A DNA stretch of 64,000 nt, taken from positions 186,001 to 250,000 of the forward strand of contig NW_027117350.1 in NCBI RefSeq assembly GCF_038025025.1. The letters run 5' to 3'. Positions 5,845 through 39,563 of the stretch are shown one piece after another (within the stretch, counting starts at the first letter, position 1; every line of letters begins with the position of its first letter). Position numbers and translations under genes: made by a program. The notes below the pieces were generated by a model. It saw nothing but the letters and a program-made list of their open reading frames with translations, was not told the DNA's origin and ran no database searches. The stretch comes from Phyllosticta citribraziliensis. Taxonomy: Eukaryota.

Positions 5845-6010
5845 CGCAGCGGGTGTCGAAAGAAATGAGGCCTCCTGGCAATATGGGTGCGTCTAGGGAA
5901 CAGTCATTCGCTGGTACAGCTGCGTTCAAGGAGCATTCGTTTACCGCCACAGCTGCGGCTAAGAAGCATTCATGCGCTGCCATAGCTACGCATAGGAAGC
6001 TGTCATTCAA
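5845..6010 (-). mobile_element. Truncated copy of the CACAGTG-ended MITE family, in opposite orientation to the other copies
   Basis: One TIR (CGCAGCGGGTGTCGAAAGAAATGAGG) followed by internal units read as GAGCATTC; second TIR not found. Confidence 0.75.
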
Positions 6011-6481
6011 GCAGCGGGAGGTGGGAGTAGCTGGTAGGTGTTTTGGTTGGAGTATCTGTCGTGGGCAAGCGCTGGAGTAGGTATGGGAACTGAAAATTTG
6101 ATTACTCGACTTTTGTGTTCGCTTGTTGGATTGTCTGTCTGTCTGTCTGTTTGTCGCCCTCAAGCTCTTTCACGATTTCTTTGCACAACTTGTTCATGAG
6201 CCACTCGCGGAGGATTCGAGGTGACTGCCCGGACTCTCCCTCTTCAGCAACAGACTGCGATATTCGCCGGTGTTCAACGGAAGTGGGTGCAAAAAAGCCT
6301 TCGCCCGAGTGTCGCAGGCACCTACCTCTTCAACAGCCGCGAGATCACCGACCGATTCCACTACCTACTTATTTCTCCAGGCGCTTCTCGTTTCTCCCTC
6401 AGCCTCACAACCATCCTCCCTTCGAATCTGCCAGATCATCGACATTACATCCTTGCCAGCATCAATCGTCCAGCAATCGCC

Positions 6482-7111
6482 ATGAAGCAAGATGGCGACA
6501 ACACCAACAGCGTGAGGTTCTTGCCATAGTGCTACGCTCTATTCTAACCAGGCGCAGCAGGTCGGCAACTCTGTTTCATGTGCATCGAGCAGAGATGAGC
6601 AGGAATACTACGAGAAACTTGGCGAGGTAAGTGCGCGTAGTCGCAATGGAGAGGTCTGTCAAAGATGGAGATTTTGCTGATCAATTGCGCGTAGCTTCAG
6701 AAAAAGCTCCGCCTCAAGTGGCGCTACGAGCGGGCGTACCGCCTCACGCGGGAGCGGGTTCGGCAGGATGTCAAGGCGATGGATGAGGACATTGCCACCT
6801 GCCGTCGTTTGGAGGCAGACATCAAGTTACTGAAGCTCCAGCGCGAAGCTCATGCGAAGAGCAGTGAAAACTACAGCAAGATGTTGGATGCAGGTGTCGC
6901 AAGGATCTTCCAGATTCGAGACGACATTCCCCGCATCAAGATGGTCGCAGAACTTGTAGAGGAAGGTGAGTACAGAAACAGAATGTGCCTTTTATGAATG
7001 GATGTCCTCCTCGGAGCGTTAGGCTGGCTCGCAGTCTTCAATGCTGATATTCGCATTTTCATAGGTGTTCTAGAGCCTTGGACAGCCGACAGTGAACTCA
7101 AACGGGAGTAA
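6482..7111 (+). CDS. Small 4-exon orphan protein (about 140 aa, predicted helical/coiled-coil)
   Basis: Exons 6482-6511, 6552-6626, 6695-6965 and 7065-7111 join in frame through GT..AG introns with CTAAC/CTGAT branch sites. Confidence 0.5.
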
Positions 7112-7309
7112 AGTGCAGGTGCATCATCTGAGGGCGCCGCCAGCAGGCCATCAGGCAGTCACATACCAAGATTGGCCATGTAAGCACATCTTCGGGTCAC
7201 CCATCATCTGCAAAATACAACATCACAACGCCTCAATCCTTGATCTTGTATCATTCTCATCCTTCTTCATCCCATCTCACTCGAGCAAGCCCTGCAATCT
7301 CCCAAACAC

Positions 7310-8053
7310 ATGTCACTTCCGGAAAGGTGAACGATTCTGGACACTTCACGCTGAACGCCATTGAAAGTGAGAAACTCTCATCTTCGGTAATCCGCGCAAT
7401 ATGACTAACGGTTTCAGTCACATCACATCCACACGCTTGAAGGATCTCCACCTCAACGACAGATCCTTGATCAGTTTGATCTGGCAACTCGTTTCATTGT
7501 GAGTCTGATTTGCTAAGTGAAATCCGACCGCATGGCTGACAACCTTCTTAGCTGCTTTTGGAACACACGACGAGAGCTCTATCCTATCAATATGTCGGTC
7601 GCTTGGAAAGCGATAAACAGAGAGCTTGGAAAGCAACTCCGAGTAGTGGGGAAACAAATTGAGCTGGACCGCAAGAAGCTTGACAAGCTTAAAGCCAAGG
7701 AAATCAAGGTCGCAGAGATGAGGAGAGACACGAATGACAACAAGATCAGACTGGCGTAGCAGCAGAAGGCAGACATTGGCCGCACTTTCCACAATCTGAC
7801 CACTCTTGAGGGTGTGAAAGGCGAGCTGGACGAATGCGAAAGGTGGTTCGTGGCGATATTGCGGAAGAACCCGTATCCAAAGTCCGCAGCCCTCTTCCGG
7901 AAGTACCTTAACGAGATCAGAGAGTTGTGGGACGACGGCAAAGCAGGCTGCCCTCGCGACCTTTACGAAGAGATCCAAGAAATGTTTGCAGCTCTCGATG
8001 AGGCTGCGGAAGCTGCGGGCGTCTCCTTGGATTATGAGCCTGAACAGAGATAG
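7310..8053 (+). pseudogene. Possible disrupted spliced gene for a coiled-coil protein
   Basis: ORFs 7517-7759 and 7814-8053 share one frame, interrupted by a single TAG at 7757-7759; intron-like segments lie upstream (about 7327-7417 and 7499-7551). Confidence 0.35.
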
Positions 8054-8769
8054 GCCAGGAGTGGTCTCGATGATTTCTTTACACATGGTCTTTCAAGTTG
8101 GGAAGGTTTCGGATTGGAAGGCACGACTTCACACAAAAGTCTTTGGTTTTGGGTATCTGCAAGACGGTTGGGGGCACTCTTCAAAAGTTCACCACGGCGG
8201 GGGGCTGCGAAAAGGGTCATTTGGTCACTGGATAGTCCTTTAGTCTGCATTTCGGACAGCTACTCATGATCCAAAATTCAATGGAAAATTGTCTCCACAG
8301 AACTGGTGTCGTAATTACAGAGGATGCATGCCTTTCTGAATTGATCAGGGAAGCTTTCTAGAGATTGGCGCTAAACAAAAGTGCACATGCTGCGGCGCTT
8401 GAGTGTGGCTTTTCTGGAAGGTTTCCACAAGTGTTGGCGTGACATCACTTCAAGTGAGAGCTCCATTGTCAATAGTTTTGGACTCAAGCAAGACGTAGTT
8501 CGATCAGGTTGGATGAAACCAGTCTTGAGAAAGAAGAATTTAGAGTGCGGCTATTGAAATGTCTTTTCGGCCTTGACAAAGTGTGGGGCAAAAAACGGCT
8601 CGCTCTCGGCCTAAAATAATTTTTCGTAGATCAACAACCATCCAAAATTACAGTTTGATGGCCATGAGAGATCAAAGAATGGTCGAACCATGCAACTGAG
8701 CCTTCCGAAAGCTTTTTTAATAAGTATATAACTTGCAAAAGCTCAGTAAATCCCAACAACAACACAGCT

Positions 8770-8862
8770 GCCTGGCTAGCTCAATCGGTAGAGCGTGAGA
8801 CTCTTAAATCACCTCCAAAAGGCGATATCTCAAGGCTGCGGGTTCGACCCCCGCGTTGGGCT
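8770..8862 (+). tRNA. tRNA-Lys(CTT) with 20-nt intron (8807-8826)
   Basis: Acceptor stem GCCTGGC/GTTGGGC, D-arm GCTCAATCGGTAGAGC, anticodon arm TGAGA-CTCTTA/A-TCTCA, T-arm GCGGGTTCGACCCCCGC. Confidence 0.95.
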
Positions 8863-9645
8863 CAATTCCCTCATCTTTTGGATCAGTTTTATACTGTTTG
8901 TGGCGGCGTGGAGAAGCTTTTTTGGTGTTTTGTTGCAGAGTCTGACAATGTCACGTGACGACGGAGATACATCGGGCCACGTGCCGCGGCTCCGCCGACG
9001 CAAATCCCCGGCCAATCCCACGCGTCGCGACTGCCTCTTTTTGCAAAGACAAGCCCAGTCGACAATTTGGCAGGCCGTGGCGAGAGTTGTCGGCGTCGAA
9101 TTCTACCTCCGACACTTGGCTGCAAAGTGGCATACACAATTCGGCATCCATTACTTCGCGCTTTCGAATGCTCTTCAACACCGTTCTTCGAAGATTTTAA
9201 ATATTCTCCAGTGCCTTCTGCCCCAACGGTGTCAGATTGATTACTTGTTCCAGCGGACGAACACTGTCCATCGACTTTACTGTGTGCCGCTACCTTTACT
9301 ATCGAGCCTTCTCCGCACAAAAAAAATACGATTGGCTCGCTTCAACGACTGTCCAGAGCGCACGGCGCAGAGGCGGGGCTTTGCGCCAACTTCGAACGTC
9401 GCGTGGGATGACACGGGGGGACGGAAATTTTTGAGATGCCTAACTGGGGTTGCGCTGCAACGAGGCAGCAGAGAATCTTTTGTGGTGGTTTGGAGGGAAA
9501 TGGCTACGACGGCTACTCTTGCATTGAAAAGACTAGATTCAGGGATTGCGGGCAGAGGTCTGGAGGGAGATGATGGATGTGATCTGTGTACTGCACATTG
9601 AAAGAAGTGGTTGCTGAAATGCGGCCACTACTTTCAAGTCGGTGC

Positions 9646-9893
9646 CACAGTGGGTGTCAAAAGAAATGAGGCTCTCCTGGTCTGTCTGCCGCAATAAACG
9701 ACCACTTCCTAAGCGCATGTATAGGTGTATGAATGCTCCTTAAGCGCAGGCGGAGTAGCGAATGAATGCTCCTTGAGCGCAGGCGAAGCAGCGAATGAAT
9801 GCTCCTTGAGCGCAGGCGAAGCAGCGAATGAACGCTCCCTAGACACACTTGTTGTATTGCCAGGAGTTGTAATTTCTTTCGACACCCACTGTG
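9646..9893 (+). mobile_element. MITE, full copy (248 bp), GTGC target duplication
   Basis: TIRs CACAGTGGGTGTCAAAAGAAAT / ATTTCTTTCGACACCCACTGTG; GTGC at 9642-9645 and 9894-9897; three tandem 33-bp units starting at 9729, 9762 and 9795. Confidence 0.9.
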
Positions 9894-10221
9894 GTGCTGG
9901 AAGAAGTATGCGAGGCGAAAGAAGTCGTGACGCAAGCCAAAGAGAGAGAAAAGGGTTCAAGATGTTCATCAGTACATCAAAATGTCGACGAATTCGACTC
10001 TGTTTCTTTGCCAGAATCAGAGCATGCAATAGGTCGCCCATGACTACAGCAACGTCTCAAGCCAGCAACTGGTGACGTCTCCGAGTTGGCTCCGGCAGCG
10101 GCAGGCAGGCGCGTGCGCGTCTCACCCCATGCCACCATTCTCTTCCATATCACCATTCCTCGACCAATTGCTGCGTGGGCCAGCTTGACTCCAGCACCGC
10201 CAGAAAAGAAAATTCCACGCC

Positions 10222-12237
10222 ATGGGCCAACAAAGAATTCTGGTGATAGCGGGCTCGGACAGCTCTGGCGGCGCGTAAGTCCCCCCAAATCCGGCACTCC
10301 CACAGCGCAACCACAGCAGCTTCGACTCGTACCTGCCCCTCCACGTGCATGCCTGCTTTCCCCCCGCTCTGCAAAAGTAGATGCAACGAGGTGCTGCATG
10401 TTCCTGAATTGTGCCTTGTCCGGGATTGAGTTCGAGTTTGCTGATCAGCATGTTTTGTGCGTAGCGGGCTGGAAGCAGACCAAAAAGTTATCGCGTCGCA
10501 TGGATGCTATGCAATGACGGCAACGACGGCGCTGACGGCACAAAACACGCTCGGAGTGCACGGCATCCATGTAACACCGTCTAGCTTTGTGCGCAAGCAG
10601 ATTGAAGCATGCCTAGACGATGTGGGTGTGGATGTGGTCAAGACTGGTAGGTAGGAGTGTCTCTTTCCAAGCCATTTTTCCTTTTCGTCAGCGTCATCAT
10701 GGCCGGGTTTTGATTCGACTTGTTGCAAGGCATGCTGGCTTCGGCCTCGACTGTAGAGGTGGTGGCCGAGGCGCTCAAGAGGTACAACGTGCCCGTTTCC
10801 GTCATCGATCCTGTAAGCGTTTCCTTGTCCGTGGGAAACATTTTCTCACGTCCGCCAGGTCATGGTCGCAACGTCAGGGGCACAGTTGCTCCATGAAGAT
10901 GCCGTGGAGACGCTCATCTCTCAACTCCTGCCGCTCGCCACCGTCGTGACGCCAAATGTGCCAGAGGCCCTGATGATACTCATGCATCGGGACGGCCAGG
11001 GAGCCCCACGGCCAGAACCAACGACGGTGAAAGAGCTGATTGCCATCGCCCAAGCCGTTCGCGAATTGGGCCCTAAGTACGTTCTGCTCAAGGGCGGACA
11101 TGTCCCCCTTAGCAAAGACCACACTGCTCCGGCCAGCGAGGCGGACCGTCACGTGGTGGTCAACGTCCTGGTAGGACCGGGCGAGCCCATCATCATGGAG
11201 ACTGGGTATCAGAAGAGCAGAAACACGCATGGCACCGGCTGCTCGCTCGCATCTGCCATTGCCTCGCGGCTGGGTTTGGGCATGACCATGGAGCAGGCAG
11301 TCAAGACGGCCAACTACTACATCGAAGCCGGAATCCGAACGAGCAAGGACCTCGGGAGCGGGAGCGGCCCAATCAACCACTTCCACTCGACATACATGCT
11401 GCCCTTTGCGCCGGGCCGCTTCATCGAATATCTCCTGGACAGAGAAGACGTGCGGGGGCCGTGGAGAGAGCACACGCATCACGACTTTGTCAAGCAATTG
11501 GCAGACGGGACGCTTCCTCTCTCCAAGTTCCAAAACTACTTGGTCCAGGACTACTTGTTCTTGGTGCGTGGATGCGTATGAGACGAGAGAGACGCTGACC
11601 TTGGCAGATACAATTCTCGAGAGCAAACTCGCTGGCAGCATACAAGGCCAAGGACTTGGACGACATCAACAAGTCGGCGAGGATAGTGTTGCATATTCAG
11701 GAGGAAATGGGGTTGCATGTAAGGTACTGCCAGGGGTTCGGGCTGACCAAGGAGGACATTGAAAGCCACGAGGAGCACCAAGGTGAGTGACGGAGAGACA
11801 AGGAGCGGTACGACATGTCAAGCGGTTTGTTGCTGACGATGGTGCCGGCAGCGTGCACAGCGTACACGCGGTACGTGCTGGACATTGGGCAGTCGGAGGA
11901 CTGGTTTGCGCTGCAGGTGGCGCTGGCGCCGTGCCTGCTCGGCTACGGACACATTGCACGCAGGCTGTTTGACGATCCGGCAACGAAGCGCGAGGGCAAC
12001 CCGTACTGGGATTGGGTTTTGCAATACGTGGCAGACGACTACACCGCCGCGGTGCGAACGGGCGCGGAGCTGCTGGAGAAGCACGCGGAGCGCCAGTCGC
12101 CGGCGCGGATCGAGGAGCTGGCGCGGATATTCATCCACGCGACCAAGGTGAGTTTACGTCCTGTGGTAATGGATGGAGTTTGCATGCTGAGAAGAGTTTA
12201 GATGGAGACGGGGTTCTGGGACATGGGGTCACTGTAG
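10222..12237 (+). CDS. THI20: Hydroxymethylpyrimidine(-phosphate) kinase fused to TenA/thiaminase II
   Basis: ILVIAGSDSSGGAGLEAD, TALTAQNT, VLLKGGH, NTHGTGC and GPINHF; TenA part YLVQDYLFL, ALAPCLLGY, METGFWDM; 6 introns. Confidence 0.9.
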
Positions 12238-12312
12238 AAAGGGATGCGGCTGAGGGAGATGAACCGAGGGATGGCGGTTGTAGTAGGCGATGGTTCGTCC
12301 GGAATAGAAGAT

Positions 12313-12368
12313 GGACAGGACAGGGTGGACAGGGTGGACAGAGAGGACAGAGAGGACAGAGAGAGACA
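12313..12368 (+). repeat. Short tandem repeat (GGACAGGGT/GGACAGAGA units)
   Basis: About five 9-bp units directly visible downstream of the THI20 stop. Confidence 0.8.
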
Positions 12369-12783
12369 ATGTGAATAGGTCAATCATTGCACACGGTCGA
12401 CATGATCGGGCGGCGATGCGACCGTGTGGGTGGCGGGTGGCCAGGAAACCCTGCGCAGACAATTTTTCCTGGCGGTAGGGCGGACCAATGGCCGTGGCGC
12501 GCAAAAAACCCAGCGCGGCCTGGTCTCGGCCCGAAGTTGCCTCCTAGCGGACGTAGAAGGCCCAGGTCTGCGCTTTCCGCTTTTTCTCTCAAAAACATCG
12601 CCCTCACCACTTCCTCCATCCCACTCCCTCCACTCGCCCTCTCATCGCCTCTGACGCGACCAAATCCTCATCTCCCTCTCTCATCTCCATCCCGACTCTC
12701 TCGCGCGACGCTGCTCTCAAGCCGCGCCTAATTTCACGCTCTTTATCACCCTTCTCCGGTCCCTACTGAACCCGCCTGCGACC

Positions 12784-15351
<2,568 letters not shown>

Positions 15352-16676
15352 ACACCCCAGCATGATCAAGTCCATGGCTATCCCGTCTGCGACGCCCGCA
15401 ACCGGTGCCGACTGCACGTAGGCTTCGAACATTTTGTGTTGAAATGTCCTGCGGGTTCTGCGTCCAAGACGACGGTGGTAGGCCTCGATTTTACGGCAAA
15501 AATCACGGCGTCGGAGTGATGGTGTTCAGGCATAGATAGGCGGTCTGCTTTGTTCTTTGCTTTTTCTCTTTCTTTTTTTCAAAGTCCTACTCACGTGAGT
15601 GGGTGTCCCTTTTCACAAGATCGGGCGGCCGTCATGGGGAAAAAGATGGGTGGTGTTTACTACTACCAGCGGGCAGCATCAAACGGTCCTGGATCGGACG
15701 GAATCACCTTTTCACTTTTCACTTTTCGTTTTTCCTTTCCCATCCCCTTGAGTCTTAATTACTACAAGGTGGACGTGTCGGAGAAATCATGAGCCCAGTT
15801 TCGGTCTCGGTGCACACAAAATCATACAACTACAACACAACACACATGCCCCCCCAAAAAAATCATTTCTGCGATGAGGCGGGAAGCTTGTTTTGTTATC
15901 GGAGAGAATGATGGCTAGACGGCGGTTGACGCTACAGTATGGGCTTGCATTATTTCCTTGACGCTTTTTTGTTTTCGTTGTTGCTCTTTTCCTTGCCTGG
16001 CTCTGCTACTACCACGACCACACCACCATCACCATACGCACATGAACTTTGTTACGGCAAACACACGGACCTCTGGGAATAGAATCGAACCGACATTTTG
16101 CTGCTGAAGTGCCTCTTGTTTTCGGTGTGCGCGCGCTTTGCTTCGTTTCGCGGGTTTGACGATAATTGCGTCTGTCCGATCGCCCTGGACATCTGTGCTA
16201 CATGTCCCTCTTCCCCGTTAGTCTATTCGTCCCTTCGCCTCGCCTTCCGCATCATCAAGCTGTCGCTCACTACATCTACTGCCTCACCACTTGCCAGTCT
16301 TCCCAGGGCAGTTTGTCTGCTAGTCTGCCAAACCACTGCTTGCTCCCTCTCCCACTTCCACCACCACTTCTTCTGTGCAACCTTCCTTCGCCAGGTCTAC
16401 GGTATCCCATGTGTCTTGCACACTACACACGGTCCGCTCGCCCATCCACCTGGGGCATTCTTCCGATTTCAAGCAGCCGGCCGGGTACGACGGCTTCTCG
16501 AATCGATGAGTCGGAGAGCTTTAATGTGGCTAACGGCAGACGGAAAGGACATGGAGGAAACGGTGCATCCGATGTTCGTGGAGCCGGGGAGATGGTGAGT
16601 GCATCGGTCCTGCCGATTCGTTGCGGTCAGGGAGCAGTATTCGACCTCTCTGGGACAGACGTATGAGCAGGAACGG

Positions 16677-16810
16677 ATGAATGCTCCGAGAGCATAGCTG
16701 CAGCAATGGATTGAATGATCGGTGAATGAATGCTCCTCGAGCGCAACCGTAGCAGTGAATGGACGCTCCCTAAGCGCGCTCACAGTGCCAGAAGACCTTA
16801 GTTCTTGCGG
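16677..16810 (+). mobile_element. Degenerate relic of the CACAGTG MITE family
   Basis: Internal units ATGAATGCTCC...GAGCGC...GTAGCAGTGAATGGACGCTCCCT and an eroded right subterminal region; TIRs not recognisable. Confidence 0.65.
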
Positions 16811-16929
16811 AATTTGCAAACCCAGCAAATGCAAGCAAGGTTTCTGTTTCATCAACACGCTCGCAGGGGGTATCAAATCTACCTATCCTCCAGCATCCTG
16901 AGTACCCTATTCAGCTCCCACCCAGACAG

Positions 16930-18994
16930 TCAGCTCCCCTGCTGCATCCGCCTGATGCGCTCCTCGGCAGCCCTCGCCCGGCGCTCCCTCTCCAGCCTCT
17001 GCCGCATCTCCGGCGTCAAGCCCCGCGCCTCGTCCTCCCTCCTCTCGCCTGCCGTCTTCTCCAACCCGGCAGCGCCCAGCCCCAGCGTCTTGCCCTTTCC
17101 AACCCTCTTCTCCCGCTGCTCCTGTGCCCGCTCGTCCTCTTCCTTCCGCAGCCGCTCGACCTCGTTCTTCCTGCGTTCCGACTCCTTGGCCGCCTCGGAT
17201 GCCTTGTCCGCGCTCTGTTGCTTTTCCACATCAGCGCGCGAGATCCCTGCGGGAACGTTGGCCTTGTCCCAATCGAAGGCTGCGTCTCCAAGCTCATGGC
17301 GCGCGATGCGGAAAGCATCTCGGGTGGCCCGGTCGCCGGCAAGATCAAATGCTGTCTTGCCGTCGAGGTTCGTGAGGGTCGGGTCTGACTTAGTTTTGGA
17401 GAGGAGGGCGAGGACGACGGCTGGACTGTTGAGGTGCGCGGCGAGGTGCAGTGGAGTTGGCGCGTGATAATTCTTTTCGCCGTCCTTTGGATAGAAACGA
17501 AAGTCTGGAGGCAGGTTGTTACTTTGAATGTATGAGACGACGCCAGGCGCTTTCGAGCGTCGGATGAGCGCTTGGAGCTGTGAGGTGTGGAGTGTTGCTT
17601 CTTCTTCCTCGGGCGAGGGTTTCGGTTTGGCTGGTTTGGCGGGTGCCGGTGTCCGCGATGGTGCTTCTGTAGGCTTTTGGGCTGCTTCGGCGGCGGCAGC
17701 CAGGGCCGCAGCGTCAATTCGGCTGACCTTTACGCGAGTGAGCTCGATGAAAGAGCGCATGAGCTCGGCCTGCGTGGCTCGGCGCGTGCTGAATGGAAAT
17801 CCCCGGATGCGCGGGTCGTTGTGTCGAAGCACCTGGCCATCGTACGGTCCGTAAAGCGTGCGCCGATTCGTCGAGCCAGTTGCCCGGATGAACAGCAGCT
17901 CGGAAGTATCAATCATGTCCTTCCATTCCGCAAGCAGAGCTCGCACCTCGGACGTAAGCGCAGCCTCGTTGTATCTTCTCAGAGAAGAACCAGCGGAATG
18001 TGCGTTGCCCTTGGACTGGTCGTTTGCTGATTGCGAACCACCCTGCTTCCGCCTGGTTGTATACCTGTGGAAAGTCTTGTGTGCCACCACCGAAGCTTGC
18101 CTTTCATCCACCCCTGTGTGCTTCTTTCCAACCTTGGGCCTGAGCGAAACAATCATTGCCGCAAAATGACCACCACCAATCATGCACAGAAAGTAGTGCG
18201 GTCCAATTTCCGGGGCAGATGGAAGCCTGACACCGCCCTCGTCCTCCTCATCCGCCGCCTTCTTTGCATTCTTTTCAGGTGGAGGCAGCTGCTTCTGCTT
18301 GAGCGCATCGACTATGCCTCCCTCGTTGTCTTGCTCTGCATCCGAAAGAATGGCCCGGTAGACTCCCAGATTGATTTCCTCCGGCAACACGGTACTGTTG
18401 AACCACAGCATCGGTGCCTTTCCGCCGCCTCTCCTCTTTCTCCTCCTCCCAACTTCCTCGGCCTCCTCTGGCCCCGCGATCTTGGCTTGCTTCTTGAGGA
18501 GTGCGCTCAGTGTGGTATCTCCTTTCTTGCCTTCGCCATCAACCTCGTCATCAGATTCTGACTCGGACGATTCTGAACCGCTGATACTCTCGTCCAGCTC
18601 CCCAACTAGCTTTTCAAACTCGACCTCTGTTACGGGTTTCACGCCGCGCATCTTTTGCTTGAGGTTGTAGCTATGCAGGTCTGACCGAACGTGGTCGCGC
18701 TGCTCTTGCAGGGTCGGGAACGTGAGGTTGCAGAGGCCGCATGATGTCGCTGTCGCCGGAGCGCTGTCTTGCTTCTCGGCGTCGGTAGATGACGGCGTTT
18801 GCGCTCCGGAGTCTGGTTCAGCGTCGGCGGGCTCGGGTGCACTGCTCTGCTGTCGTAGCGTGATCGTGTCGAGGAGTTCGCGGGGGAGATCAAAAACTGA
18901 TCCAGGTCAGCCGTCTCGATGTCGTGTTGCATGTCGTAGTTTGCTTACCGTAGAGCGGCTTTTGAAGTAGAGGATGCTCTTCCTTGTGCGCCAT
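16930..18994 (-). CDS. VMS1: Vms1/ANKZF1 ribosome quality-control factor (VLRF1 domain, C2H2 finger, ankyrin repeats)
   Basis: GGGHFAA, HKTFHRYTTRRKQGGSQS and SAGSSLRRYNE; VIM-like tail RERRARAAEERIRR; intron 18897-18948. Confidence 0.93.
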
Positions 18995-19655
18995 GACGAA
19001 GAATGTGGAAAGGAAAGGAGGAACACAGGTGGATTACTGGACTGCAAAGCGCTTAAAGAATTGTGCTGGAGCAAGGCGAGAGGTGAGATCGGTTGTGGCT
19101 GAGAGCTGTTGGGCAATATGTCAGAGTACGAAGTTCCGTCGCTCAGTGAGTCAAGCGCGGTCCGATAAGATTAGATCTGTAAACTGCAGATGAATTCTTT
19201 TAGAACTACACTGCAGCATTCAACCGATGATATATTGGCGGAATTGGCGGACAAACACTTCTTTTCATAGTTATACTCTCAAATATATGGCTGGCTTGGA
19301 AAGCCTTGTTTTCGAGCAGAATGAGACCAAGTGTCAACAGCCAACGTCGCTACAGTTGCAGTCCCGTCCATATGCTGGGAAGAGCATATCAGACTGCCGT
19401 CAGTCATGTTATCCTAGTCATTCCAGCAGTAAAGTCATGAATGCACTCGAGTTGAGTCAAAGGAGCCGCGGCAAAACGAGCGTTGAAGTTGAAGTGCAGA
19501 TAGACCTCAGCACGAGCCACCAAACGGGCTCGACCATTCCCAAAACAGTCTAACGCGGATGGTAATGCTCTATTTCATCACGACTCGCAGCATCAAACCT
19601 CCCGCCTTCTCTCCAACCCGTCTTCACCACCCGAGGCCTCAAGCTTTCACACGCT

Positions 19656-20525
19656 ATGCTCAGAATGGCGCCCTCACACGTCGACATCCTCATTCTCGGC
19701 GCCGGCTGGACATCGACATTCCTCACGCCGCTGCTCCAGCAAAGAGGCATCACCTACGCCGCAACCACGACCACCGGCCGCGACGGCACGCTACTATTCC
19801 GCTTCGACCCGGACAGCGACGACGAGGCGCCGTACGCCGCGCTGCCGCGCGCGCGCACCGTGCTCATCACGTTTCCCCTGCTCGGCCGCGGCCAGTCATC
19901 ACATCTGGTCGACATGTACCGCAAAGCGCACAGCAGCAGTGACGACGGCGCGGCCAACTGGATCCAACTGGGCTCATCCGGCGCCTTCGCCTCCGACGCG
20001 CACTGGGTCACCTCGGCGACCCCCGTAGATGCCAGCATCGCGCGGGTCGTGGCGGAAGAGGAGCTCCTCGCCGCGCCGCTCAATGGCAGCGTGCTCAACC
20101 TGTGCGGGCTGTACGGCGGCGCGCGCGACCCGCGCGGCTGGATCAGTCGCGTGGCCCGTAGCAAGGAGCAGGTTGCGGGCAGAAAGGCGCTGCACGTTGT
20201 GCATGGCGACGACGTTGCGCGCGCCATTGTCGCCCTGCACGAGGCGTTTACGCCAGGTCGCCGCTGGCTGGTTACCGATTTGCATGTGTACGATTGGTGG
20301 GATCTCATGTACGCGTGGGGACCCGAGGCCGAGGCGAAGGCGAGGGAGAGGTTGGGTGCGGAGGAGGCGGCAGGGCTGGAGTATAGGAGGTGGGTGAGAG
20401 AGTTGATGGACGAGCAGGACGTGAGGGCTCTGCCGCGGGATACTAAGATGTTGGGCAGGGTGCTGGATGGGAGAGAGTTTTGGCGGCACTTTGGCCTGTG
20501 GCCGGAAAGGGGAAGAGTCGTTTGA
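19656..20525 (+). CDS. NAD(P)-binding Rossmann-fold protein (atypical SDR/epimerase-like)
   Basis: ILILGAGW nucleotide-binding start, LCGLYG and VHGDDVARAI motifs; intronless 289-aa ORF. Confidence 0.75.
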   Translation: MLRMAPSHVDILILGAGWTSTFLTPLLQQRGITYAATTTTGRDGTLLFRFDPDSDDEAPYAALPRARTVLITFPLLGRGQSSHLVDMYRKAHSSSDDGAANWIQLGSSGAFASDAHWVTSATPVDASIARVVAEEELLAAPLNGSVLNLCGLYGGARDPRGWISRVARSKEQVAGRKALHVVHGDDVARAIVALHEAFTPGRRWLVTDLHVYDWWDLMYAWGPEAEAKARERLGAEEAAGLEYRRWVRELMDEQDVRALPRDTKMLGRVLDGREFWRHFGLWPERGRVV

Positions 20526-25424: not shown

Positions 25425-25585
25425 CCTAGGGAGAGAGTAACCATGGGATTTGTAAATCAGCGCCCCTATACACATTCCGGAATGGTTGAATGCTCCCTGT
25501 ACGAGTGCTCTGGCCCAAAGTACATGTACTCAACCAGCTCCGGTACGAAATGCTCTCCCAGAATTACTGGAAACGCCATTCTAAG
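25425..25585 (+). mobile_element. Highly degenerate relic resembling the CACAGTG MITE interior
   Basis: TGAATGCTCCC core plus weak similarity to both subterminal regions; no TIR or target duplication. Confidence 0.3.
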
Positions 25586-29765: not shown

Positions 29766-31284
29766 CTATGCAAACATGTTGATCGTCTCCTTCTTCTTGG
29801 CCTGCACCTCCAAGATGGCGTCGACGTAGTGCTCGTGGATGATCTTGGACTGGCCGGAACGCAGGGCAATCATACCCGCCTCGACGCAGACGGCCTTGAG
29901 CTGGGCGCCACCAAACTCGTCCGTGCTGCGCGCCAACTCGCCCCAGTTGACATTGTCATCGACGGCCATCTTGCGGCTGTGGATGCGCAGAATCTGGGCG
30001 CGCGCCTCCTCGTTGGGCAGCGGGAATTCAATCTTGCGGTCCAGACGACCCGAACGCAGCAGGGCCGGGTCGAGCACGTCGACGCGGTTGGTGGCCGCCA
30101 GAACCTTGACGCGGTCGTCCGAGGCGAAACCGTCGAGCTGGTTCAGCAGCTCCAACATGGTGCGCTGCACTTCTCTGTCTCCCGACTTCTCCGAGTCAAA
30201 ACGCTTAGTGCCGACGGCGTCGAGTTCGTCGATGAAGATGATGGACGGGGCCTTTTCCTTGGCGAGAGCGAAGCAGTCTCGAACCAACTTGGCACCGTCT
30301 CCGATGAACATTTGCACGAGCTGGGGCCCGGCGAGCTTGAGGAAGGTTGCGTCGGTTTGAGCAGCGCAAGCTCTGGCGAGCAAAGTCTTGCCGGTTCCCG
30401 GGGGTCCGTACATGAGAGCACCTGTTTCAAATCAGTCAGACAGAGCCGTGATGTTGCCAAACCCGCATCAACTTACCCTTCGGCGCCTTGATTCCAATCT
30501 TCTTGAACCGCTCGGCCTCCTTCATCGGCCACACGACTGCTTCCACCAGCTCCTCGATCTGCTTGTCCAGGCCTCCAACGTCCGTGTACTTTTCCGTCGG
30601 CTTTTCGTCTACCTCCATGGCCTTGACTCTGCTGTCGTACTCTGCCGGCAGGGTATCCAAGACCAGGTAGGAATCCTTGTTCACACCAATGAGGTCGCCA
30701 GGCTTGAGCTTTTCGTGGTCCACGAGGCCGATGAGAGGAAGGAATATGGTCTGACGGGTCGACGTCTTGATGACTGCAGACTTGCCCACGCGTGTAGCGT
30801 CCAGGTCGATGTTAGCACCCTCCTCGGCAGCTTCCGCAGCCACGTCCAAGTCGAGGATCTCGACAACGTTGCCAACGAGATAGGGTAGTTGTCTGTGAGG
30901 AGATGGTTAGCGGGAGCAAGAGGCGTGCCGCGAAGCGGCCAGCCAGTGGTGTCGATGGTGACGTTACCTGTTGTTCTCGATCTTGTCCATGTTGTCCTTG
31001 ATCTTCTCGTGCATGGTTGCCTTCTCGTGCGTTAACCGCTGAAACTCGCTCTTCATGATGCGCATGTCGTTTTCGAGAAGCCGCCTTCTGGCGATGATGT
31101 CGCGCGTGCTCAGGCCCAGGATCTCGGCGTCCAGAACGTCATCCTCCTTTGAATCTTCTGCATCCTTCATGTCGGCATCGCCATTCTGGTTGCCCTTGCC
31201 ACCGTCCTGATCCTTGTCGCCATCCTTCTTGCCCTCGTCCTTGCCGGAGCGCTCAATGTCGTCGAGGTCCTCTAGTGTCGACAT
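29766..31284 (-). CDS. RPT5: 26S proteasome AAA-ATPase subunit 6A
   Basis: [52 protein letters not shown]; introns 30422-30476 and 30893-30967. Confidence 0.96.
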
Positions 31285-31895
31285 GGTGGCGTAGAGATGT
31301 CGGTAAAGCGGGGTGGAAGCCTTTGCAACTGCGTCGTTCCGACCGAGTTATCGATGAGATTCGAAGAGGTTGAGGGATGTGACGAATGGTGGAGGTGGAA
31401 GGGTGTGAGGTTGACAGCTGGTGCTGATGGTTGCTGGTGGATAGAAGCTCCCCGGCACTGGCATGGCGCTAGCGGCGCACGGCGATTATGTCATCACCCT
31501 CCGGTCCGCGTGTCAATCAACGCTTAAGGATGTATTTCGCATCCATGGTCTATGTCGAATGGAATTTCGAAGAGACAAAGAGCATTCAGGCTTTGTCCTT
31601 CTACTACTGCCCTTCTTGGGTTTCACAATTTACATGCGATACTCCGCAGATTACACTCCCGTTTAACGCAGACTTCTTCAACTCAATGCATTCTACGGCA
31701 CCTATTAAGTGGGCTTTGCCGGAAAAGCCAGCAAAACCATCAACTTCATGCGCACTGTATGCATCTACAAGTAGCAGACTCGGTCGCACTTTCAAAGTTT
31801 GTGGACCACAACTCGACCTCCTGTATCCACGTCCTTTCGATTCGACTTCTGTAGGATACTTGCCGCTGTCATCTCCATCCCATGGCTACCGTCTC

Positions 31896-34005
31896 TCACA
31901 TTTGCCAATGCATTAGGCCATTATTCGGAAAGTTGAGGGATCTGTACCGCGCCAGAAAATCGTCGCCGTTGACTGCATATGGTGTCAATTGTCGCCCATC
32001 GATTCTGGATTACAAACTCACTGTAGCCGCCACACAGTCTACGCTGACCGGTAAACGCCGATCGACCATGGAGAACGCGCCAATTGTCAAAGACTGCCAA
32101 AGTTAGCAAAGTCAAAGGAAGACAAGCCAGAAAGTGAAGTCGTACTCAGTGGCCGTCCGGGCTTGAGCTGCTCCCAGTATTCGTTCACAGGACTCTTCAG
32201 CAAATGGTTCCACTTCCTTCGTATCGTCAGTCGACGGCTCGTCTGATCATGGTGGAGATGGACTTACTTGGCTCCCATGTACCAATGAGGCCAGCTTTCC
32301 ACCGGTGGTTGCAGTCCATCTCGGTCATAGTTGTTCCATCGGATTTGAACCAGCTGGCGGCCGTGGTGTGTGAATGCAGGCTGGGGCTCGAGAGGGAAAA
32401 TACTATTTCCGTTGTTTCCACTGGCGTGACCGTAAGACTTGTATCGCGATAAGACTTCGTAGTACGCGTTATTCCTCTTGTGCAGGTCCATGGCAACCTT
32501 GAAGCCATCTACGAGCAGCGAAGCGCCGCCCTCGCCCCCTTCGTGGGAAAGTAGGTGGAACATCTGCAGGCGCGCCGGGTCCGTGAAGTACGTCGTGTCG
32601 GTGTGGGCATCGAGCCCAAGGTTAGTATATGCAGTGTCGTTCGAAGCCATGTCAGCCGTAAAGTCCCAGAAACCACCTGCGCTTGTGTCAGTCAGTCCAA
32701 AGGCCAGTAAGGGAAGGATCCGGACCATAGTGGGTGTGTCGTATGAAGGAGATTCTTTCGAGAAGTTCTTGCGTCGCCTCGGGCGATACTGGGCAGCCGT
32801 CAACATAGCAAAAGCCGTAGCGTTTCTGTGCATGGTTAACACTGTGGTTGCACCAGGAGTTGTTTTGCTTACAATCAGATAGGTCCATTCTTTGACACCT
32901 TCATCGGAAGCCATAACCTTGTCATAGTCCACCATCGGTGGCTTCTCCTTGATTTCGCGTCCCCACAGTATTGGACTGAACATATAGTCAGCACATGAGA
33001 GAAAAGCTTGAGGTGTATGTTCTCACTCGTGGTCGCCTTGTCTTGCTGACCACTCGTGGTCAGGCAACAGTCTTGCAACTAGAGCTTCGGGCTTGAACGT
33101 GCTTTCATGGCCATCGCTAACTGCAAAATCAATCAGTCGACACCCAAGGCTTGAATGGATGGCGCTTGGCTCTTACAGAGCACGCGTATTTCATCGTCGG
33201 TTACATCGGCCTTGATTATGGTTATTGTTTTCGGGATCTGTGACCAGTCAGATAAAGCTCCAAGAAACGAAACATAAGCCTCACCGAGAAAGTGTCGACT
33301 TCGCGCTGCCTGGTCACGGGATGGACGCATTGCTTGCATTGGCAAGAGTCCCTGGCACACTCAATTTCTGACCTTGGTCGAGTCCGGTCGGATTTGGCAT
33401 TACCTTAACCATATCGCAGGACTTGTTCGATCAGTTTCTGGGTTCAAAACTGAGTGCTAGTACGGAAGAGGCTCACATAGTCCGGCAAATCTCGTTTCCG
33501 TCAACATTGGGGCCTGTCAATTCCAGCCTCACGCCTGAGCCCTCGGGTCTTTTGGGAATGAAGGCGAACTTCTTGGTTGCGTTTGGATTGGGTTTGGGGG
33601 TATGCACAATGGGGTGCCACTAGCTCGGTCAAAGTTGATCTGGTGGTGTGATGTTTTGCGAACTTACCGGCTCATTGTGATTCTTCTGGTTTTGCCCGCG
33701 CTTCTTGGGCTGTGCTCTTCTACGCAAGGATAGGTCGTGCTCAACTTTAGGGCTGGGCTGATCCTCTTGTTCATTCTATCATCGTGTCAGGTTGCAAGAA
33801 ATTTGGCGACCTGAAGCGAACATACAAAGCTCGCCTTTGTCGCAGCTAACGCATCCCCGGCATAAGATCGCGTGAGACGTGGCAGCTGTGCCGCTGAAGC
33901 TATCGCAGTCCTGGGGGTGAAAATGTTAGATTCCGACGCGTAGGAAACAGGTGGAAAGACTTGCCATGGAATGCCTGTGGACAGACGGAGCGCGCGCCGT
34001 ATCAT
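31896..34005 (-). CDS. Trimethyllysine dioxygenase (carnitine biosynthesis; TauD-like Fe/2OG enzyme), multi-exon
   Basis: LRDKCQG...HP, GGFWDFT, AHTDTTYFTDP, LLVDGF, IRWNNYDR and FDNWRVLHGRSAFTGKRRLCGGY; Arg-rich presequence-like N-terminus; about 11 introns. Confidence 0.87.
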
Positions 34006-34239
34006 GATGAGGTTGCAAAAGTTCCAGTCGCGTTGATGGAGCAGTAGCGGACAAGTAAACAGTTGGAGGTTACTGCCGTCACACCCCACACCCCGGATAT
34101 AGCTAGCCAAAAGTGGTCTAGTGCCGGTCCTGCGCTGATGCTCGGATACCTGCTAGCCGACGAGGACTTGCTGTTCGTCCATTGATGCCGAAGCAGGCAC
34201 TCGGTTGCGAGAAAGCACAAGTCCTGAATCTAGTGCTCT

Positions 34240-34452
34240 CGCAGTGGGTGTCGAAAGAAATGAGACTCCCATGGTCTATCTGCAGTAATAATTGACGGCT
34301 TCCAAGCGCGAGTATTACGCTTCACGAATGCTCCTTGAGCGCAGGCGTAGCAGCGAACAAATGCTCCTTAAGGACAATCGTGGGAGCAAATGAACGCTCC
34401 CCAGACGCACTCATACTTCCAGGAGGTCTCATTTCTTTTGACGCTTACTGTG
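34240..34452 (+). mobile_element. MITE, full copy (213 bp)
   Basis: CGCAGTGGGTGTCGAAAGAAATGAG / CTCATTTCTTTTGACGCTTACTGTG; flanks CTCT and GTCT (3/4 match); two internal 33-bp units. Confidence 0.85.
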
Positions 34453-34583
34453 GTCTCAAAAGTAACGTTTGAATTTCCCGGCATACAAGGAACCACACGT
34501 TCTTAGGTATATAATGACTACAGTGCACCTCCATCTCCAATACAAGCGCAGCTACTCCCAAGCAGCTTCTGCCCCGTTACACC

Positions 34584-34682
34584 GGTGAGGTGGCCGAGTT
34601 GGTTATGGCGCCAGGTTAAGGTTACCGTAATATCTGTTTCCTGGTGGGGCAACCCGCGCGAGTTCGAGTCTCGTCCTCATCA
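34584..34682 (+). tRNA. tRNA-Leu(AAG) with short intron
   Basis: GGTGAGG/CCTCATC acceptor stem, TGGCCGAGTTGGTT D-loop, CCAGG-TTAAGG...CCTGG anticodon arm, long variable arm GGG-CAA-CCC, GTTCGAGTC, downstream T-run terminator. Confidence 0.92.
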
Positions 34683-35145
34683 CTATCTTTTTTGCCTTTT
34701 CCCGCATCGTTTTGTCGCTGTGGAGAGGCTGGGAGGCTGGTGTTGAAAAATTGATAGAGTCCGTGCGTCGCGTGCGTCGCGTGCGCCCGGCCCGGCGCGA
34801 GGCTCTCTCGGCCACGAGGAGAGTACTGTAAGAGCGTACCGTACTTGCCTTGATTGTGCCGTCTCAGTCTAAGTCTTCTGTTTTGTCATGTGCCATCTTT
34901 ATTGGCTGAAATTCAAAGCCCGCCATGGTCCGACCACGGAAATGAAGAGAGCATTCGCCCTTTTGCTTTGGCGAGGTGTGAAGGGACGAGTATTCCGCAG
35001 CATCCAAGTTCTCCAGAAAAGGTTTGAAGGATGAATTTATGGAATGATTTTACGTTTGCGTCATTATCAATCAACTGCCCTACATAAAACATCAAGATTA
35101 CGCAAGACCACTTCTCTGTACCTACCTCTGCGACCAGCCACATTC

Positions 35146-36187
35146 TCAATCCACGTCTGGCACGGGCAAGCCATTGTACATTTTCATGTGACGTCCCTGA
35201 GCCTCCATGGCCTCCATGGCCTTCTTCTCGCGCAGTCCAGCCGCCTCTTTATCCGACACCAGCACAAAGTCATACGTGATGAGCTTGCCGCCCTCGGGAA
35301 AGTCGTAGCGCTCGGCCTGCTCTTTGGACACGGTGCCCAGATCGATCAAGAGCGACTCTTTGACGCCAAACACGGCGTCGGACGTCTCGTAGGGGTCGTT
35401 TCGGAGGTACAGCGCACTGCAGTTCTACGGTCAGCGGGTTGAAGGCGGTTGGGCAGTGAGCAACTTGCGTGATCAAATGGTCGTAGCCCTCCTTTGCAAA
35501 CATAAAGTGCATGTGGCTCGGGCGGTACGGGTGTCTCTTCAACACCTTCAACAGCTTGCCCACCGGCCCGTCGTGGGGGATGGGGTACGGCACGGGCACA
35601 ATGGCCTTGAACCAGAAAAGGCCGTCGTCGTCACTGCGCAATATCGCGCGTCCATCCGGCCCTTCGCGCCCTGCGTACTGCACGTCGTAGAAGCCCTTGG
35701 AGTCTGTCTCCCAGACGTCAATCTTGACGCTGGGGATGGGCCGGCCCGCCGTGTCCTTGATGGTGCAAAGCACCAGACAGGGCTCCCCTTGGGGGTCATG
35801 CGAAATGGTACTTCCGCCGGGCTCCTCATGAGCATCGAGGGTGTGGAAGGGGCCGAGCACGGTGCCTTCGGTGCTGAGCGGCGGCTTGGGGTGATCGATC
35901 GAGTCGATGAGGAGGGACAGCCCAAGTATATCGGACAGCAGAATGTACTCTTGCCGCACGTCGCTGCAGATTTGGCCAACTTCGGTCAGGAATTGGAGGC
36001 CCGTCATCCATTCGTTGGTGCTGAGGCGCGTCTCGCGCGCAAAGTCGTGGAGATGCACGACAGCGCGCTCGAGGATGTACTTGAGACGGGGGTCTGGAGC
36101 GCGCGAGTTGATGAGGTGGACATTTTCAGTGATGTTGTCGATTGTCAAGTCCTTGAGAGGCGGAATGTCGACGGCAGAGGGATCCAT
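35146..36187 (-). CDS. Intradiol ring-cleavage dioxygenase, hydroxyquinol/catechol 1,2-dioxygenase type
   Basis: HLHDFARETRL, ILLSDILGLS, TVLGPF, GFYDVQ, YPIPHDGPVG, RPSHMHF and SDAVFGVK; GC-AG intron 35417-35468. Confidence 0.9.
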
Positions 36188-36634
36188 TGTGCAGATTGAC
36201 GAACAGGCGCACTGATTTGGCAACTTTGGACGGGCTCAGTTGTTTATCAATCGGATATAAGTAGCTGGAGAGGTCGGACTTGTCATTGATTTATCACTCG
36301 CAGCGGGACGCGTACTAAACGGCTTCGTCCTAAAGGCTGTTTCGACCCCGCGATCACCCTCCCCGCACCTGGCACTTGGTTCGGCGAGCTTGGTCGGTAC
36401 ATGGGAGTAGTGTGGTTGAACATGTTCGGCATGGGTCCACTTGGGGCGGGCGAAGAGTGCAAAGTCAAATGATGATGAGAGGACGTCAGGAGATGATAAA
36501 TGCTGATGAATTGGATGGTCCAATGGCGAACGAGACATTTCGTTCTATGCGATGGAATCTGGGGGCTGGGGCTGGGGCTGGGGCTGGGGGCCCGCTGCGA
36601 CCCCGCCGGAACCGTTCCGCTCTGGCCTCCGCCC

Positions 36635-36828
36635 CACAGTGGGTGTAGACAGAAATGAGGGAGACACCCTAGGTCTGGCAGCAGCACATGTGGCAGCGCA
36701 CGCATGAATGCTTCCTAAGCGCGACTGTAGCAGTGAATGGATGCTCCCTAAGCGTGGCTGTAATAGCAGATTAGGTATTGCTCTTGAATTGTTGCCAGGA
36801 AGTCTCATTTCTTTCGACACCCACTGTG
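36635..36828 (+). mobile_element. MITE, full copy (194 bp)
   Basis: CACAGTGGGTGTAGACAGAAATGAG / CTCATTTCTTTCGACACCCACTGTG; flanks GCCC and CCCC (3/4 match). Confidence 0.87.
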
Positions 36829-36861
36829 CCCCTCGCTGCTCAACCAAACGACCTCCCTCTC

Positions 36862-37314
36862 CTACAACCTGCTCTTCACCTTCAAATGCTTCGCCGCAAA
36901 ATCAATCGCCGCAGTATACCCATACGTTCCCAGCCCACATATCACCGCCTCCGCCTTGTCGCTCAAGTAGCTGTGGTGCCGAAACGGCTCTCTTTTGTGG
37001 ACGTTTGAAATGTGCACCTCGAAAAACGGCACGTCGATTCCCACCAGCGCGTCCCTCAGCGCAACGCTCGTGTGTGTCAGGGCTCCAGGATTGATGATGA
37101 CGGCGTCAATTCTCCCACGGGCCTCGTGAATCCGGTCGATAATGGCGCCCTCCCAGTTGGATTGGTAATCTTCGACCTCGACCTCGAGCTCCGCAGCCTG
37201 TTGTTTCGCGAGGTCGACCACGTCGCTCAGTGTGGTACTTCCGTAAATATGCGGCTCTCGTGTTCCAAGGAGGTTGAGGTTGGGCCCGTTGATGAGGAGA
37301 ATGCGCTTGGCCAT
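36862..37314 (-). CDS. qa-2: Catabolic type II 3-dehydroquinase
   Basis: [51 protein letters not shown] (qutE orthologue). Confidence 0.96.
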
Positions 37315-37892
37315 GGCTGCTTGTTCGAATCGCGTGGTTTCACGGAGAGAGGGTTGGTAATACTTGACCGGTGGGTGGTCGTATGTTTGTCGGTTGTCGA
37401 GTCGAGAGAGCTGCTGCTTTCAAACATGATGTGCGGACACGGCGAAGAAAAGCATCCTGCAGACTGCACATCTTCACGACTCAGGGAAAACATTCTTCCC
37501 AGACTGGAATAAAGCCCGACGACTTCATGCTTGTTTGAGGCCTTGAAGAAACGGGCATTCTATCAAAGAAGCAAACAATAGCGCCTTTGAGACCCAGAGT
37601 CAGTTCTCGCAGCGTTTGCATGACGGTCCACTCCGAGCATGTTTTGAAGATGGCGAGGTAGCTTCTTTTCAGCCTGGCACGGGCTCTTTGGCGGCCATCA
37701 GAGCGCTGCGGGACATGCCCGGCGAACTGTGCGCTTTGTGGCGGTCAGATGCGGGTCAGGACATTCATTCGAGCTGCGAGGCTGCGTACCTAGCAGGGGG
37801 ACAGCTATAACCGAAGCGACAATGACTGCAAGGGCTCTCTTCGTCTTATCAAGCCTCCTCCGAGTCCCCTTCACAGCTCACAAGACACCAAC

Positions 37893-39372
37893 ATGACAGC
37901 AATCGAAATCGGACAGGCGGAGCTGGACGACATTTATGCCTTTGCTGTGCAACTGGGCAAAGATGCCGGTAAAATGCTGCTCGACGCGGCCATGTCGAGG
38001 TGCTCGGCTGGAAGACCGGAAGAGAAGGAACATGTGGAGAAGATGAACGCCGTCGACCTGGTAACTCAAACGGATGAAGGTACGTCGGTTTGTTGCCTCG
38101 AAACGGCAATTGAGGCTTGCTGGCGAAATGGCTTTGGATGCACAGCTACACGTGTTGGTCGTTGCGACGAGAAGAAACATGCAGCCCTGGAAGCCATGCC
38201 TTGACGCTTGCCCCTGTCGCTAGTGGTTTTGTTGCTAAATGCTCGAGCAGACGTCGAAGCATTTGTCAAAAAGAGCATTGTCAAGAAATATCCCTCGCAC
38301 AAGTCAGTTGCAGCTTTCTCGTCACCTTTAGTGGCTCGTCGACACAAAACTCACCCGAAAACTAACTAAATCGCTATCCAGATTCATTGGCGAAGAAACA
38401 TACTCCAAGGGCGCATCAAAAGACTATCTAGTCGACAAATCGCCCACATGGATCGTCGACCCGCTCGACGGGACCGTCAACTACATCCACCTTTTCCCCA
38501 TGTTCTGCGTCAGCATCGGCTTCGTGGTTGATCACAAACCGACCATTGGCGTCATCTACGCTCCATTTCTTAACCAACTTTTCACCGCGTGCCGCGGGCG
38601 CGGCGCCTGGCTCAACGACACGCAGCAGCTGCCGCTTATGCGTAACCCGGTGCCGCCCATGCCGGCCAATGCGCCCTCGGGCTGCGTGCTGAGCTGCGAG
38701 TGGGGCAAGGACCGGCGCGACCGCCCCGACGGCAACATGTGGCGCAAGGTTGAGAGTTTTGTGAATTTGGCAGCCGAGAGAGGCGGCAGGGGTGGCAAGG
38801 GGGGCATGGTGCACGGCGTGAGGAGCTTGGGGAGGTGAGTAGAGCCCAACTCCGACGGAACTTGTTCCGATAGCTTGCTGTACGTGGCTGACTTGTAATC
38901 AGCGCAACACTTGACCTGGCATATTGTGCCATGGGCTCGTTTGATATCTGGTGGGAGGGCGGCTGTTGGGAGTGGGACGTTGCAGCCGGCATCTGCATCT
39001 TGCTGGAAGCGGGCGGCTTGGTCACCACCGCCAATCCACCTGCAGACCCTGCCACCGCGCCGATCGAGGAAGTTCGCTTGGGAAGCAGACTGTATTTGGC
39101 TGTGAGGTAAGTGACGACGACTCTCACATCCACTTCAAAAACAAAAAGCAGATGTGGCGAGCTTTTACCCGCTCGGTTGCCATGGAGGGGAGCGCCCAAT
39201 GGAGACGCAGTGGAGAAACAGTGGAGTTATTGATTCTTTGACGTGGAAGCTGACGTTCATCAGACCCGCCGGGCCGTCCGAGAATGAGACTGGCAGACAG
39301 AGCCAGGAGCGCACTGTCCGAGAAGTGTGGAAGCGGGTCATGGAACTGGACTATTCCCGACCTGGTGCATGA
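37893..39372 (+). CDS. qa-x: Inositol-monophosphatase-family protein of the qa cluster
   Basis: [23 protein letters not shown] and WEWDVAAG motifs; 4 introns; divergent from qa-2 (qutG orthologue). Confidence 0.9.
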
Positions 39373-39384
39373 GTAGGACACGTC

Positions 39385-39563
39385 CACAGCGGGTGTGGGA
39401 AGGAATGAGGCTCTCCAGGTCTAGCTGCCGCAACAAACCACAGCTCTGCGCGCATCTGCGATGGCAGGCGACTGCTCCTTAGGTGTCACGGCAAGAGCAG
39501 AGGACTGCTCCCTAGACGCAAACACCGCAGTGACCGAGGTCCCATTTCTTTTGACACACTGTG
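39385..39563 (+). mobile_element. MITE, full diverged copy (179 bp), CGTC target duplication
   Basis: CACAGCGGGTGTGGGAAGGAATGAGG / CCCATTTCTTTTGACACACTGTG; CGTC at 39381-39384 and 39564-39567. Confidence 0.85.

Follow-up and report, generated by a model that had tools for sequence, protein, structure and literature searches.

MITEs with CAC..GTG ends and GC-rich 4-bp target duplications: a non-autonomous DNA-transposon family of the fungus Phyllosticta citribraziliensis

A family of so-called MITEs (miniature inverted-repeat transposable elements), that is, of non-autonomous DNA transposons, is dispersed in a 64,000-bp stretch of the genome of Phyllosticta citribraziliensis (assembly GCF_038025025.1, contig NW_027117350.1, positions 186,001 to 250,000; G000:C13:186001-250000 in the coordinates used below), which is referred to here as the window. 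Its members have CAC..GTG ends and duplicate a GC-rich 4-bp target; they are 108-266 bp long and non-coding, possess terminal inverted repeats (TIRs), and are represented by 158 TIR sites in the 31.35-Mb, 22-contig assembly that was searched, from which 58-60 two-ended copies were examined. Their mobiliser was quite probably a DDE transposase belonging to the CMC/Transib (CMCT) clade, from a Chapaev-like, a Sly/fungal EnSpm-like or an unnamed lineage inside that clade, which has been lost or destroyed by repeat-induced point mutation (RIP).

Anatomy of the copies

A family profile built from 49 two-ended genomic copies matches the window, at a 25-bit cut-off, in exactly six places, namely four full copies and two relics, and the reversed window, used as a control, in none. 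The four full elements had been delimited correctly in the original prediction, and the relics that it placed near 5845 and 16680 are recovered by the profile. A third supposed relic, at 25480, shows only a ~10-bp likeness to an internal motif and was rejected; since it has no profile match at that cut-off, the window holds six copies and not the seven that had been entertained. None of the six overlaps an open reading frame of at least 330 aa starting with ATG, and an Rfam search of the window recovered only two tRNA genes, leaving the element itself unmatched.

The copy at 9646-9893 (forward strand, 248 bp) is a member of a young subfamily with one extra 33-bp unit and both TIRs present. It is flanked on the left by GTGC (9642-9645) and on the right by an exact copy of it (9894-9897), both read on the forward strand, and it is 98.1% identical over aligned columns to a copy at G000:C9:1484937. 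The other full copies, all on the forward strand, are more diverged from their nearest sampled relatives: an old one of 213 bp at 34240-34452 (77% identity; flanks CTCT/GTCT, one mismatch), one of 194 bp at 36635-36828 (85%; GCCC/CCCC, one mismatch), and the most diverged, of 179 bp, at 39385-39563 (74%; CGTC/CGTC), whose right TIR has suffered a 2-bp deletion. The duplication is thus exact in two of the four and carries one mismatch in the other two. As for the relics, that at 5845-6009 on the reverse strand (profile match 5847-6009; profile positions 45-179, 112.6 bits) keeps the right TIR and 33-bp units and has lost its left end, and that at 16666-16806 on the forward strand (profile positions 42-166, 69.6 bits) consists of 33-bp units from the interior plus a portion of the right subterminal segment, with no intact TIR.

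Read from the family consensus, the TIR extends to about 34 bp, with agreement at 32 of the 34 positions, and not to the roughly 25 bp first proposed. The interior, which had gone unremarked, is made of about two to six direct 33-bp tandem units per copy. In the 9646 element they form an array at 9729-9838 on the forward strand (3.3 well-conserved units; Tandem Repeats Finder period 33, 94% matches), with degenerate units also upstream of it. Each unit contains the motif CTCCYTRR, and each of the two TIRs carries it at its inner end; the element is thus essentially composed of TIR, units and TIR. The motif is spaced by 33 bp in 62 of 76 intervals (a total summed from the listed counts) and by 66 bp in five, and the copy lengths cluster near 148, 181, 214 and 248 bp.

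This anatomy bears on the reading of the family as solo long terminal repeats (LTRs), TRIM-like retroelements or a dispersed minisatellite without transposon origin. The ends are 5'-CA..TG-3', the inverse of the TG..CA of LTRs, the ~34-bp inverted repeat closes into a long stem (for the 9646 copy a terminal stem with z = -4.09, as its TIR predicts), and neither direct terminal repeats nor a poly-A tail were seen. Such an origin, which would account for an interior that is itself a minisatellite and which is compatible with the 4-5-bp duplications also given by Dothideomycete LTR elements (PMC4522978), is very improbable.

Target-site duplication and target preference

The duplication was examined genome-wide starting from a 23-bp TIR pattern with at most two mismatches, which gives the 158 sites mentioned above against none for the reversed pattern. 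Among 60 distinct two-ended copies, which lean to the better-preserved ones since they were chosen by TIR similarity, exact duplications of 1, 2, 3 and 4 bp are found in 21, 8, 4 and 29 copies, respectively, and of 5-10 bp in none; where both heptamers are perfect, the exact 4-bp duplication is present in 15 of 20. In an earlier set of 58 copies the corresponding counts were 21, 8, 4 and 28, against permutation means of 17.0, 5.1, 0.83 and 0.38, and the permutation maximum for 4 bp was 4. Given the 158 TIR matches against none reversed, and the 28 of 58 duplications against a permutation mean of 0.38, chance is excluded. Three of the four 3-bp duplications were seen in C or G runs, and TA is duplicated in none of the 58 copies tested. 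The GC-rich 4-bp duplication claimed on the basis of the window, as opposed to TA, is thereby supported; a genome-wide picture of TA or of no consistent duplication, named beforehand as the outcome that would speak against the family, did not emerge.

Nevertheless, 31 of the 60 two-ended copies have no exact 4-bp duplication, and this lack tracks the decay of the TIRs, the exact duplication falling from 11/15 to 13/26 and 4/17 through the mismatch classes. The terminal C, A and C deviate in 11, 6 and 13 of 116 ends, respectively. At one family copy on contig C8 (L011:1437-1794, near G000:C8:1411127) the 4-bp flanks are replaced by a direct duplication of ~64 bp (89% identical), which represents either an aberrant long duplication or an insertion into a tandem repeat.

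The target itself is biased. The 28 exact duplications have a GC content of 71%, compared with 47% in the adjoining 6 bp of flank, and their central dinucleotide is pyrimidine-purine (YR) in 15 cases and purine-pyrimidine in one (sign test p=0.0005, uncorrected and picked after inspection of the matrix, as are the symmetric preferences that follow). Symmetric preferences exist for A/T at -3/+3 (25/56) and Y/R at -2/+2 (42/56), T/A being avoided at -1/+1 (3/56), so that the target reads as a loose palindrome, AYV-SYRS-BRT (the hyphens delimit the 4-mer). A preference for a central YR step is a general trait of target bending by DDE transposases and integrases that cut 4 bp apart. It would accordingly also suit another superfamily with 4-bp duplications (Sola, Ginger, Academ, Kolobok, piggyBac) or an unnamed one, the CAC..GTG ends being coincidental, and no transposase links the family to the CMCT clade. 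However, piggyBac and Kolobok duplicate TTAA, a 4-mer absent from all 28 duplications listed, AT-rich 4-mers are preferred by Sola1, and the ends of Ginger are TG..CA; none of these fits the combination of GC-rich 4-mers and CAC..GTG ends. An origin of this kind is unlikely.

The ends also recall Transib and the recombination signal sequence (RSS) of V(D)J recombination, a likeness that had been pointed out from the window and that holds in part. The terminal CACAGTG is the RSS heptamer, and GC-rich targets (here 71% vs 47%) are a Transib trait; on the other hand, Transib makes 5-bp duplications and has a nonamer (PMC1131882), while a 5-bp duplication is present in 0/60 copies and both essential A's of the nonamer (A5-A6), looked for at three offsets, occur in no more than 6, 4 and 3 of 120 ends, respectively. 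With no nonamer, a function of the MITE ends as RSSs was discarded. It is conceivable that a true Transib/RAG-like transposase was at work, its strand-transfer spacing having moved from 5 bp to 4 bp, given that RAG transposition sometimes yields 4-bp duplications and that a Transib transposase has been reported in soybean rust (PMC1131882). This is nonetheless quite unlikely in view of the duplications and the nonamer, and the corresponding profile, PF12940, is unmatched in the genome.

Copy number, distribution and age

Two copies were found in 20 evenly spread 10-kb samples, corresponding to ~310 genome-wide (95% interval 38-1,130). By comparison, 358 kb of DNA within 10 kb of known copies contains another 15, and the 64-kb window has six. 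The copies thus lie in clusters, and their density in the window is about nine times the genome average. The high copy number anticipated from it stands as a few hundred copies, not as the ~2,900 that the density of the window would imply. Of the 62 best-preserved elements, contig C9 carries 15, where 3.8 would be expected (Monte Carlo p ~1e-5), a roughly fourfold excess suggestive of short-range transposition or of a regional bias.

Pairs of copies are on average 69% identical, and the median identity to the nearest neighbour is 81%, two pairs reaching 98%, one of them with the 9646 copy; the family is mostly old and was inserted in several waves. In the young subfamily (eight copies) the changes from the consensus comprise 31 C>T at CpA, 18 at CpG, 1 at CpT and 31 others, which is mild RIP or methylation damage and not saturation as in the AT-rich blocks described below.

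Contigs of four public runs (X1, X3, X4 and X10) were aligned to positions 4001-20000 of the window at 80% likeness. In X10, which contains a relative ~98% alike in a conserved gene, depth rises to 2,346 in the bin with most of the 9646 copy, while bins that lack a well-preserved copy range from 25 to 443; 22 + 15 contigs bear unrelated loose ends exactly at 9893/9894, and because of both observations, the family is multicopy there with the same terminus. Unrelated loose ends occur also in X3, at 5847 and 9644, and in X1 depth is raised in that same bin around the 9646 copy. In one X10 contig and one X4 contig, position 9644, which lies within the left 4-mer, is joined to 9948, and the alignment of an X3 contig starts at 9892. 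These joints hint, without amounting to proof, at related genomes devoid of the 9646 copy, i.e., at an empty orthologous site, although those of X10 and X4 have no visible junction letters and resume on the right 54 bp past the element. Likewise, the replacement of 5755-6002 by 95 letters in an X10 contig hints at, and falls short of proving, the absence of the 5845 relic.

The mobiliser and its probable fate

Several results weigh against a CMCT mobiliser: the limits of the joints just described, the copies without an exact duplication, and the outcome of the search for the transposase. The original prediction is weakened by the incomplete likeness to RSSs, the copy number below that implied by the window and the age of most copies. 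The profiles PF02992, PF20231, PF18759, PF12940 and PF03184 gave no candidate each in the whole genome, where the control PF00270 (DEAD) gave 43 matches, so that the domain search works in this genome. TIR pairs more than 400 bp apart, expected of a long element, make up 27 rows (19 distinct), none with matching 4-bp flanks, and forty stretches of ~10 kb read inward from TIR sites reveal no span with matching flanks, in a reading that left aside 58 sites with two mismatches and a few with one (for example C9:806262 and C12:588341). Three RIP-tolerant patterns of the TIR and of the 33-bp unit yielded MITE-like sites only, and the eight loci inspected from one of them all lie in normal-GC DNA. 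With neither a transposase nor a long element recovered, the superfamily is assigned from ends and duplication length only.

Two sets of candidates for the autonomous partner were discarded. One is a 787-bp span from TIR to TIR (G000:C4:1684691-1685477), whose flanks do not match and whose interior is single-copy and without a Pfam match. The other comes from outside this genome: a metagenome scan with a 22-mer gave no matches, and the 48 metagenome matches of a 17-mer, together with five from a viral scan, are all 53 chance-like: none has a partner TIR, and the highest profile score among them is 10.7 bits.

The genome contains AT-rich blocks of 22-32% GC. In the small part of them that was read (~14 kb), Pfam recognises only a Copia-type reverse transcriptase (E 1.9e-10) and weak reverse transcriptase-RNase H matches (E 0.002-0.005), and these barely readable retrotransposon relics are read as the result of heavy RIP. 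Since even reverse transcriptases barely score in such blocks, a RIP-mutated transposase would escape detection. Blocks of this type lie at G000:C10:510001-527800 (L198, L079), C13:1-10000 (L204) and C19:1-4300 (L202); L198 shares a 3.5-kb part with contig C21 at 94% identity, and a Cys-rich motif readable in L198 is presumably DUF3716-like.

A mechanism can be proposed along the following lines. A DDE transposase of the CMCT clade, encoded elsewhere and supplied in trans as a dimer, would bind both CAC ends, excise the element and join it to the target, whose two strands would be attacked 4 bp from each other, on either side of the bendable central pyrimidine-purine step. The repeated CTCCYTRR motifs are probably binding sites for the transposase or a helper protein, by analogy with the subterminal repeats of CACTA elements, which are protein-binding sites, and the number of 33-bp units probably changed by slippage or unequal exchange. 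Repeats under ~400 bp largely escape RIP; the short copies would thus have been mostly spared, with the long autonomous partner mutated beyond recognition or lost, and this sparing would explain the persistence of MITEs when their long partner is gone.

Other features of the window and the genome

Two intron-containing tRNA genes, at 8770-8862 and 34584-34682 (Lys and Leu by ARAGORN), lie ~780 and ~130 bp from MITE copies. Targeting of tRNA genes is not supported: short-intron ARAGORN calls number ~8 per 229 kb of copy flanks and 4 per 200 kb of random DNA, in a noisy hand count.

A near-perfect 50-bp palindrome at 45939-45988 (24-bp arms, 96% complementary), possibly a relic of another small TIR element, adjoins a short AT-shifted stretch. 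Of five proteins from the window that were looked up, three had an entry, and every named member of their 90% clusters comes from Phyllosticta, which places the host in this Dothideomycete genus. Among the genes of the window, those within 41858-54414 look like a quinate-utilisation cluster, whose first gene would be a sugar-transporter-like permease and whose last an AROM-like repressor; the other two are named, by protein-cluster look-up, as 3-dehydroshikimate dehydratase and fungal transcription factor. A DEAD-box helicase gene (PF00270 match) at 12780-15235, presumably DBP2-like, has Gly-rich repeats at both ends. Elsewhere in the genome, L063:2189-9877 (G000:C7) consists of long nested tandem repeats of several periods and is probably a repetitive protein-coding gene.

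Significance and comparison with known systems

The association of a 4-bp duplication with CAC..GTG ends is what makes this family notable in a Dothideomycete; in other respects it is best classed as a known type of element and, without its transposase, as a well-characterised but mostly fossil MITE. Its ends, duplication, target motif and subterminal unit constitute a clear search specification for a transposase of the RAG1-ancestral clade, in a fungal group for which no such 4-bp family was found described. In addition, it provides several hundred insertions whose presence or absence can serve as markers between Phyllosticta species, and it would exemplify short elements that outlast a RIP-killed master. 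It is possible, if doubtful, that these MITEs were left behind by a fungal lineage of the CMC/Transib clade that is still undescribed, or by the first fungal lineage of Chapaev type. Such a lineage would combine RSS-heptamer ends, phased 33-bp subterminal units and a 4-bp palindromic target, and would have been active recently enough, with copies 98% alike, for an intact transposase perhaps to be preserved in some Phyllosticta or Botryosphaeriales genome related to this one.

The literature covered, to which Repbase, Dfam and most subscription papers did not belong, gave no account of this family, nor of any from fungi that combines CAC..GTG ends with 4-bp duplications. Within the 193,142 characters of text from the supplement of Kojima 2025 (PMC12730594), the terminal 9-mer, Phyllosticta and 4 bp are all unmatched, and the available portions of PMC4411706, PMC11969663 and 10.1101/2021.09.26.461848 hold no fungal 4-bp case. 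The MITEs of Zymoseptoria tritici are similar as short TIR elements of gene-rich regions in a RIP-active Dothideomycete; nevertheless, among the 13 families, as far as the accessible text goes, the duplication is of 2 bp in nine, 5-6 bp in two, 8-9 bp in one and 4 bp in none (PMC4522978). MITEs of the Tc1/mariner/pogo type differ in their TA duplication.

CA..TG ends and duplications of 2-5 bp are common traits of the CMCT clade (PMC12730594), and three fungal lineages described by Kojima 2025 are EnSpm (CAC..GTG, 3 bp), ESTA (TA) and Plavaka (2-3 bp; PMC12730594). Fungal EnSpm/CACTA elements share the clade and the CAC..GTG ends with the family, but duplicate 3 bp, whereas here exact 3-bp duplications are found in 4/60 copies and 4-bp ones in 29/60; the genome holds no match to Tnp2 (PF02992), a relic of which RIP would hide. 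The CNEST elements of Cryptococcus, another fungal CMCT lineage, have 33-bp TIRs starting with CACGG (10.1101/2025.05.19.654958), comparable to the TIR of ~34 bp found here; ESTA and CNEST duplicate TA, unlike this family. Plavaka ends in TGT..ACA or CATCA..TGATG, besides its shorter duplication, and its profile PF18759 is the one already reported as absent from the genome.

Two systems remain to be compared. Chapaev, an animal group of CMC, has CAC..GTG ends and 3-4-bp duplications as hallmarks (PMC4079192, PMC4411706), a range that includes the 4 bp observed here; the host differs, being an ascomycete, Chapaev is defined by a transposase with C(2)C, LH and H(4)H motifs and the Chapa domain, and the 3-bp TWA target of Chapaev3 is not used, the duplications here being of 4 bp and 71% GC. 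In its ends and duplication length the family thus works like Chapaev, of which it may be a member. The other system is Sly1-1 of Neurospora crassa, a coding CMC element of 11.5 kb with homologs in Chaetomium and Coccidioides (PMC4592977). Its existence weakens the notion, present in the original prediction, that a CMC mobiliser would be poorly described in ascomycetes, since CMC is already known in fungi (PMC4592977, PMC12730594). In length and coding capacity it is unlike the MITEs, and the comparison is one of text, which implies for Sly1-1 a duplication of at least 3 bp; still, as an ascomycete TIR element of the same inferred clade whose long copies are destroyed by RIP (PMC4592977), Sly1-1 could be the closest relative of the family.

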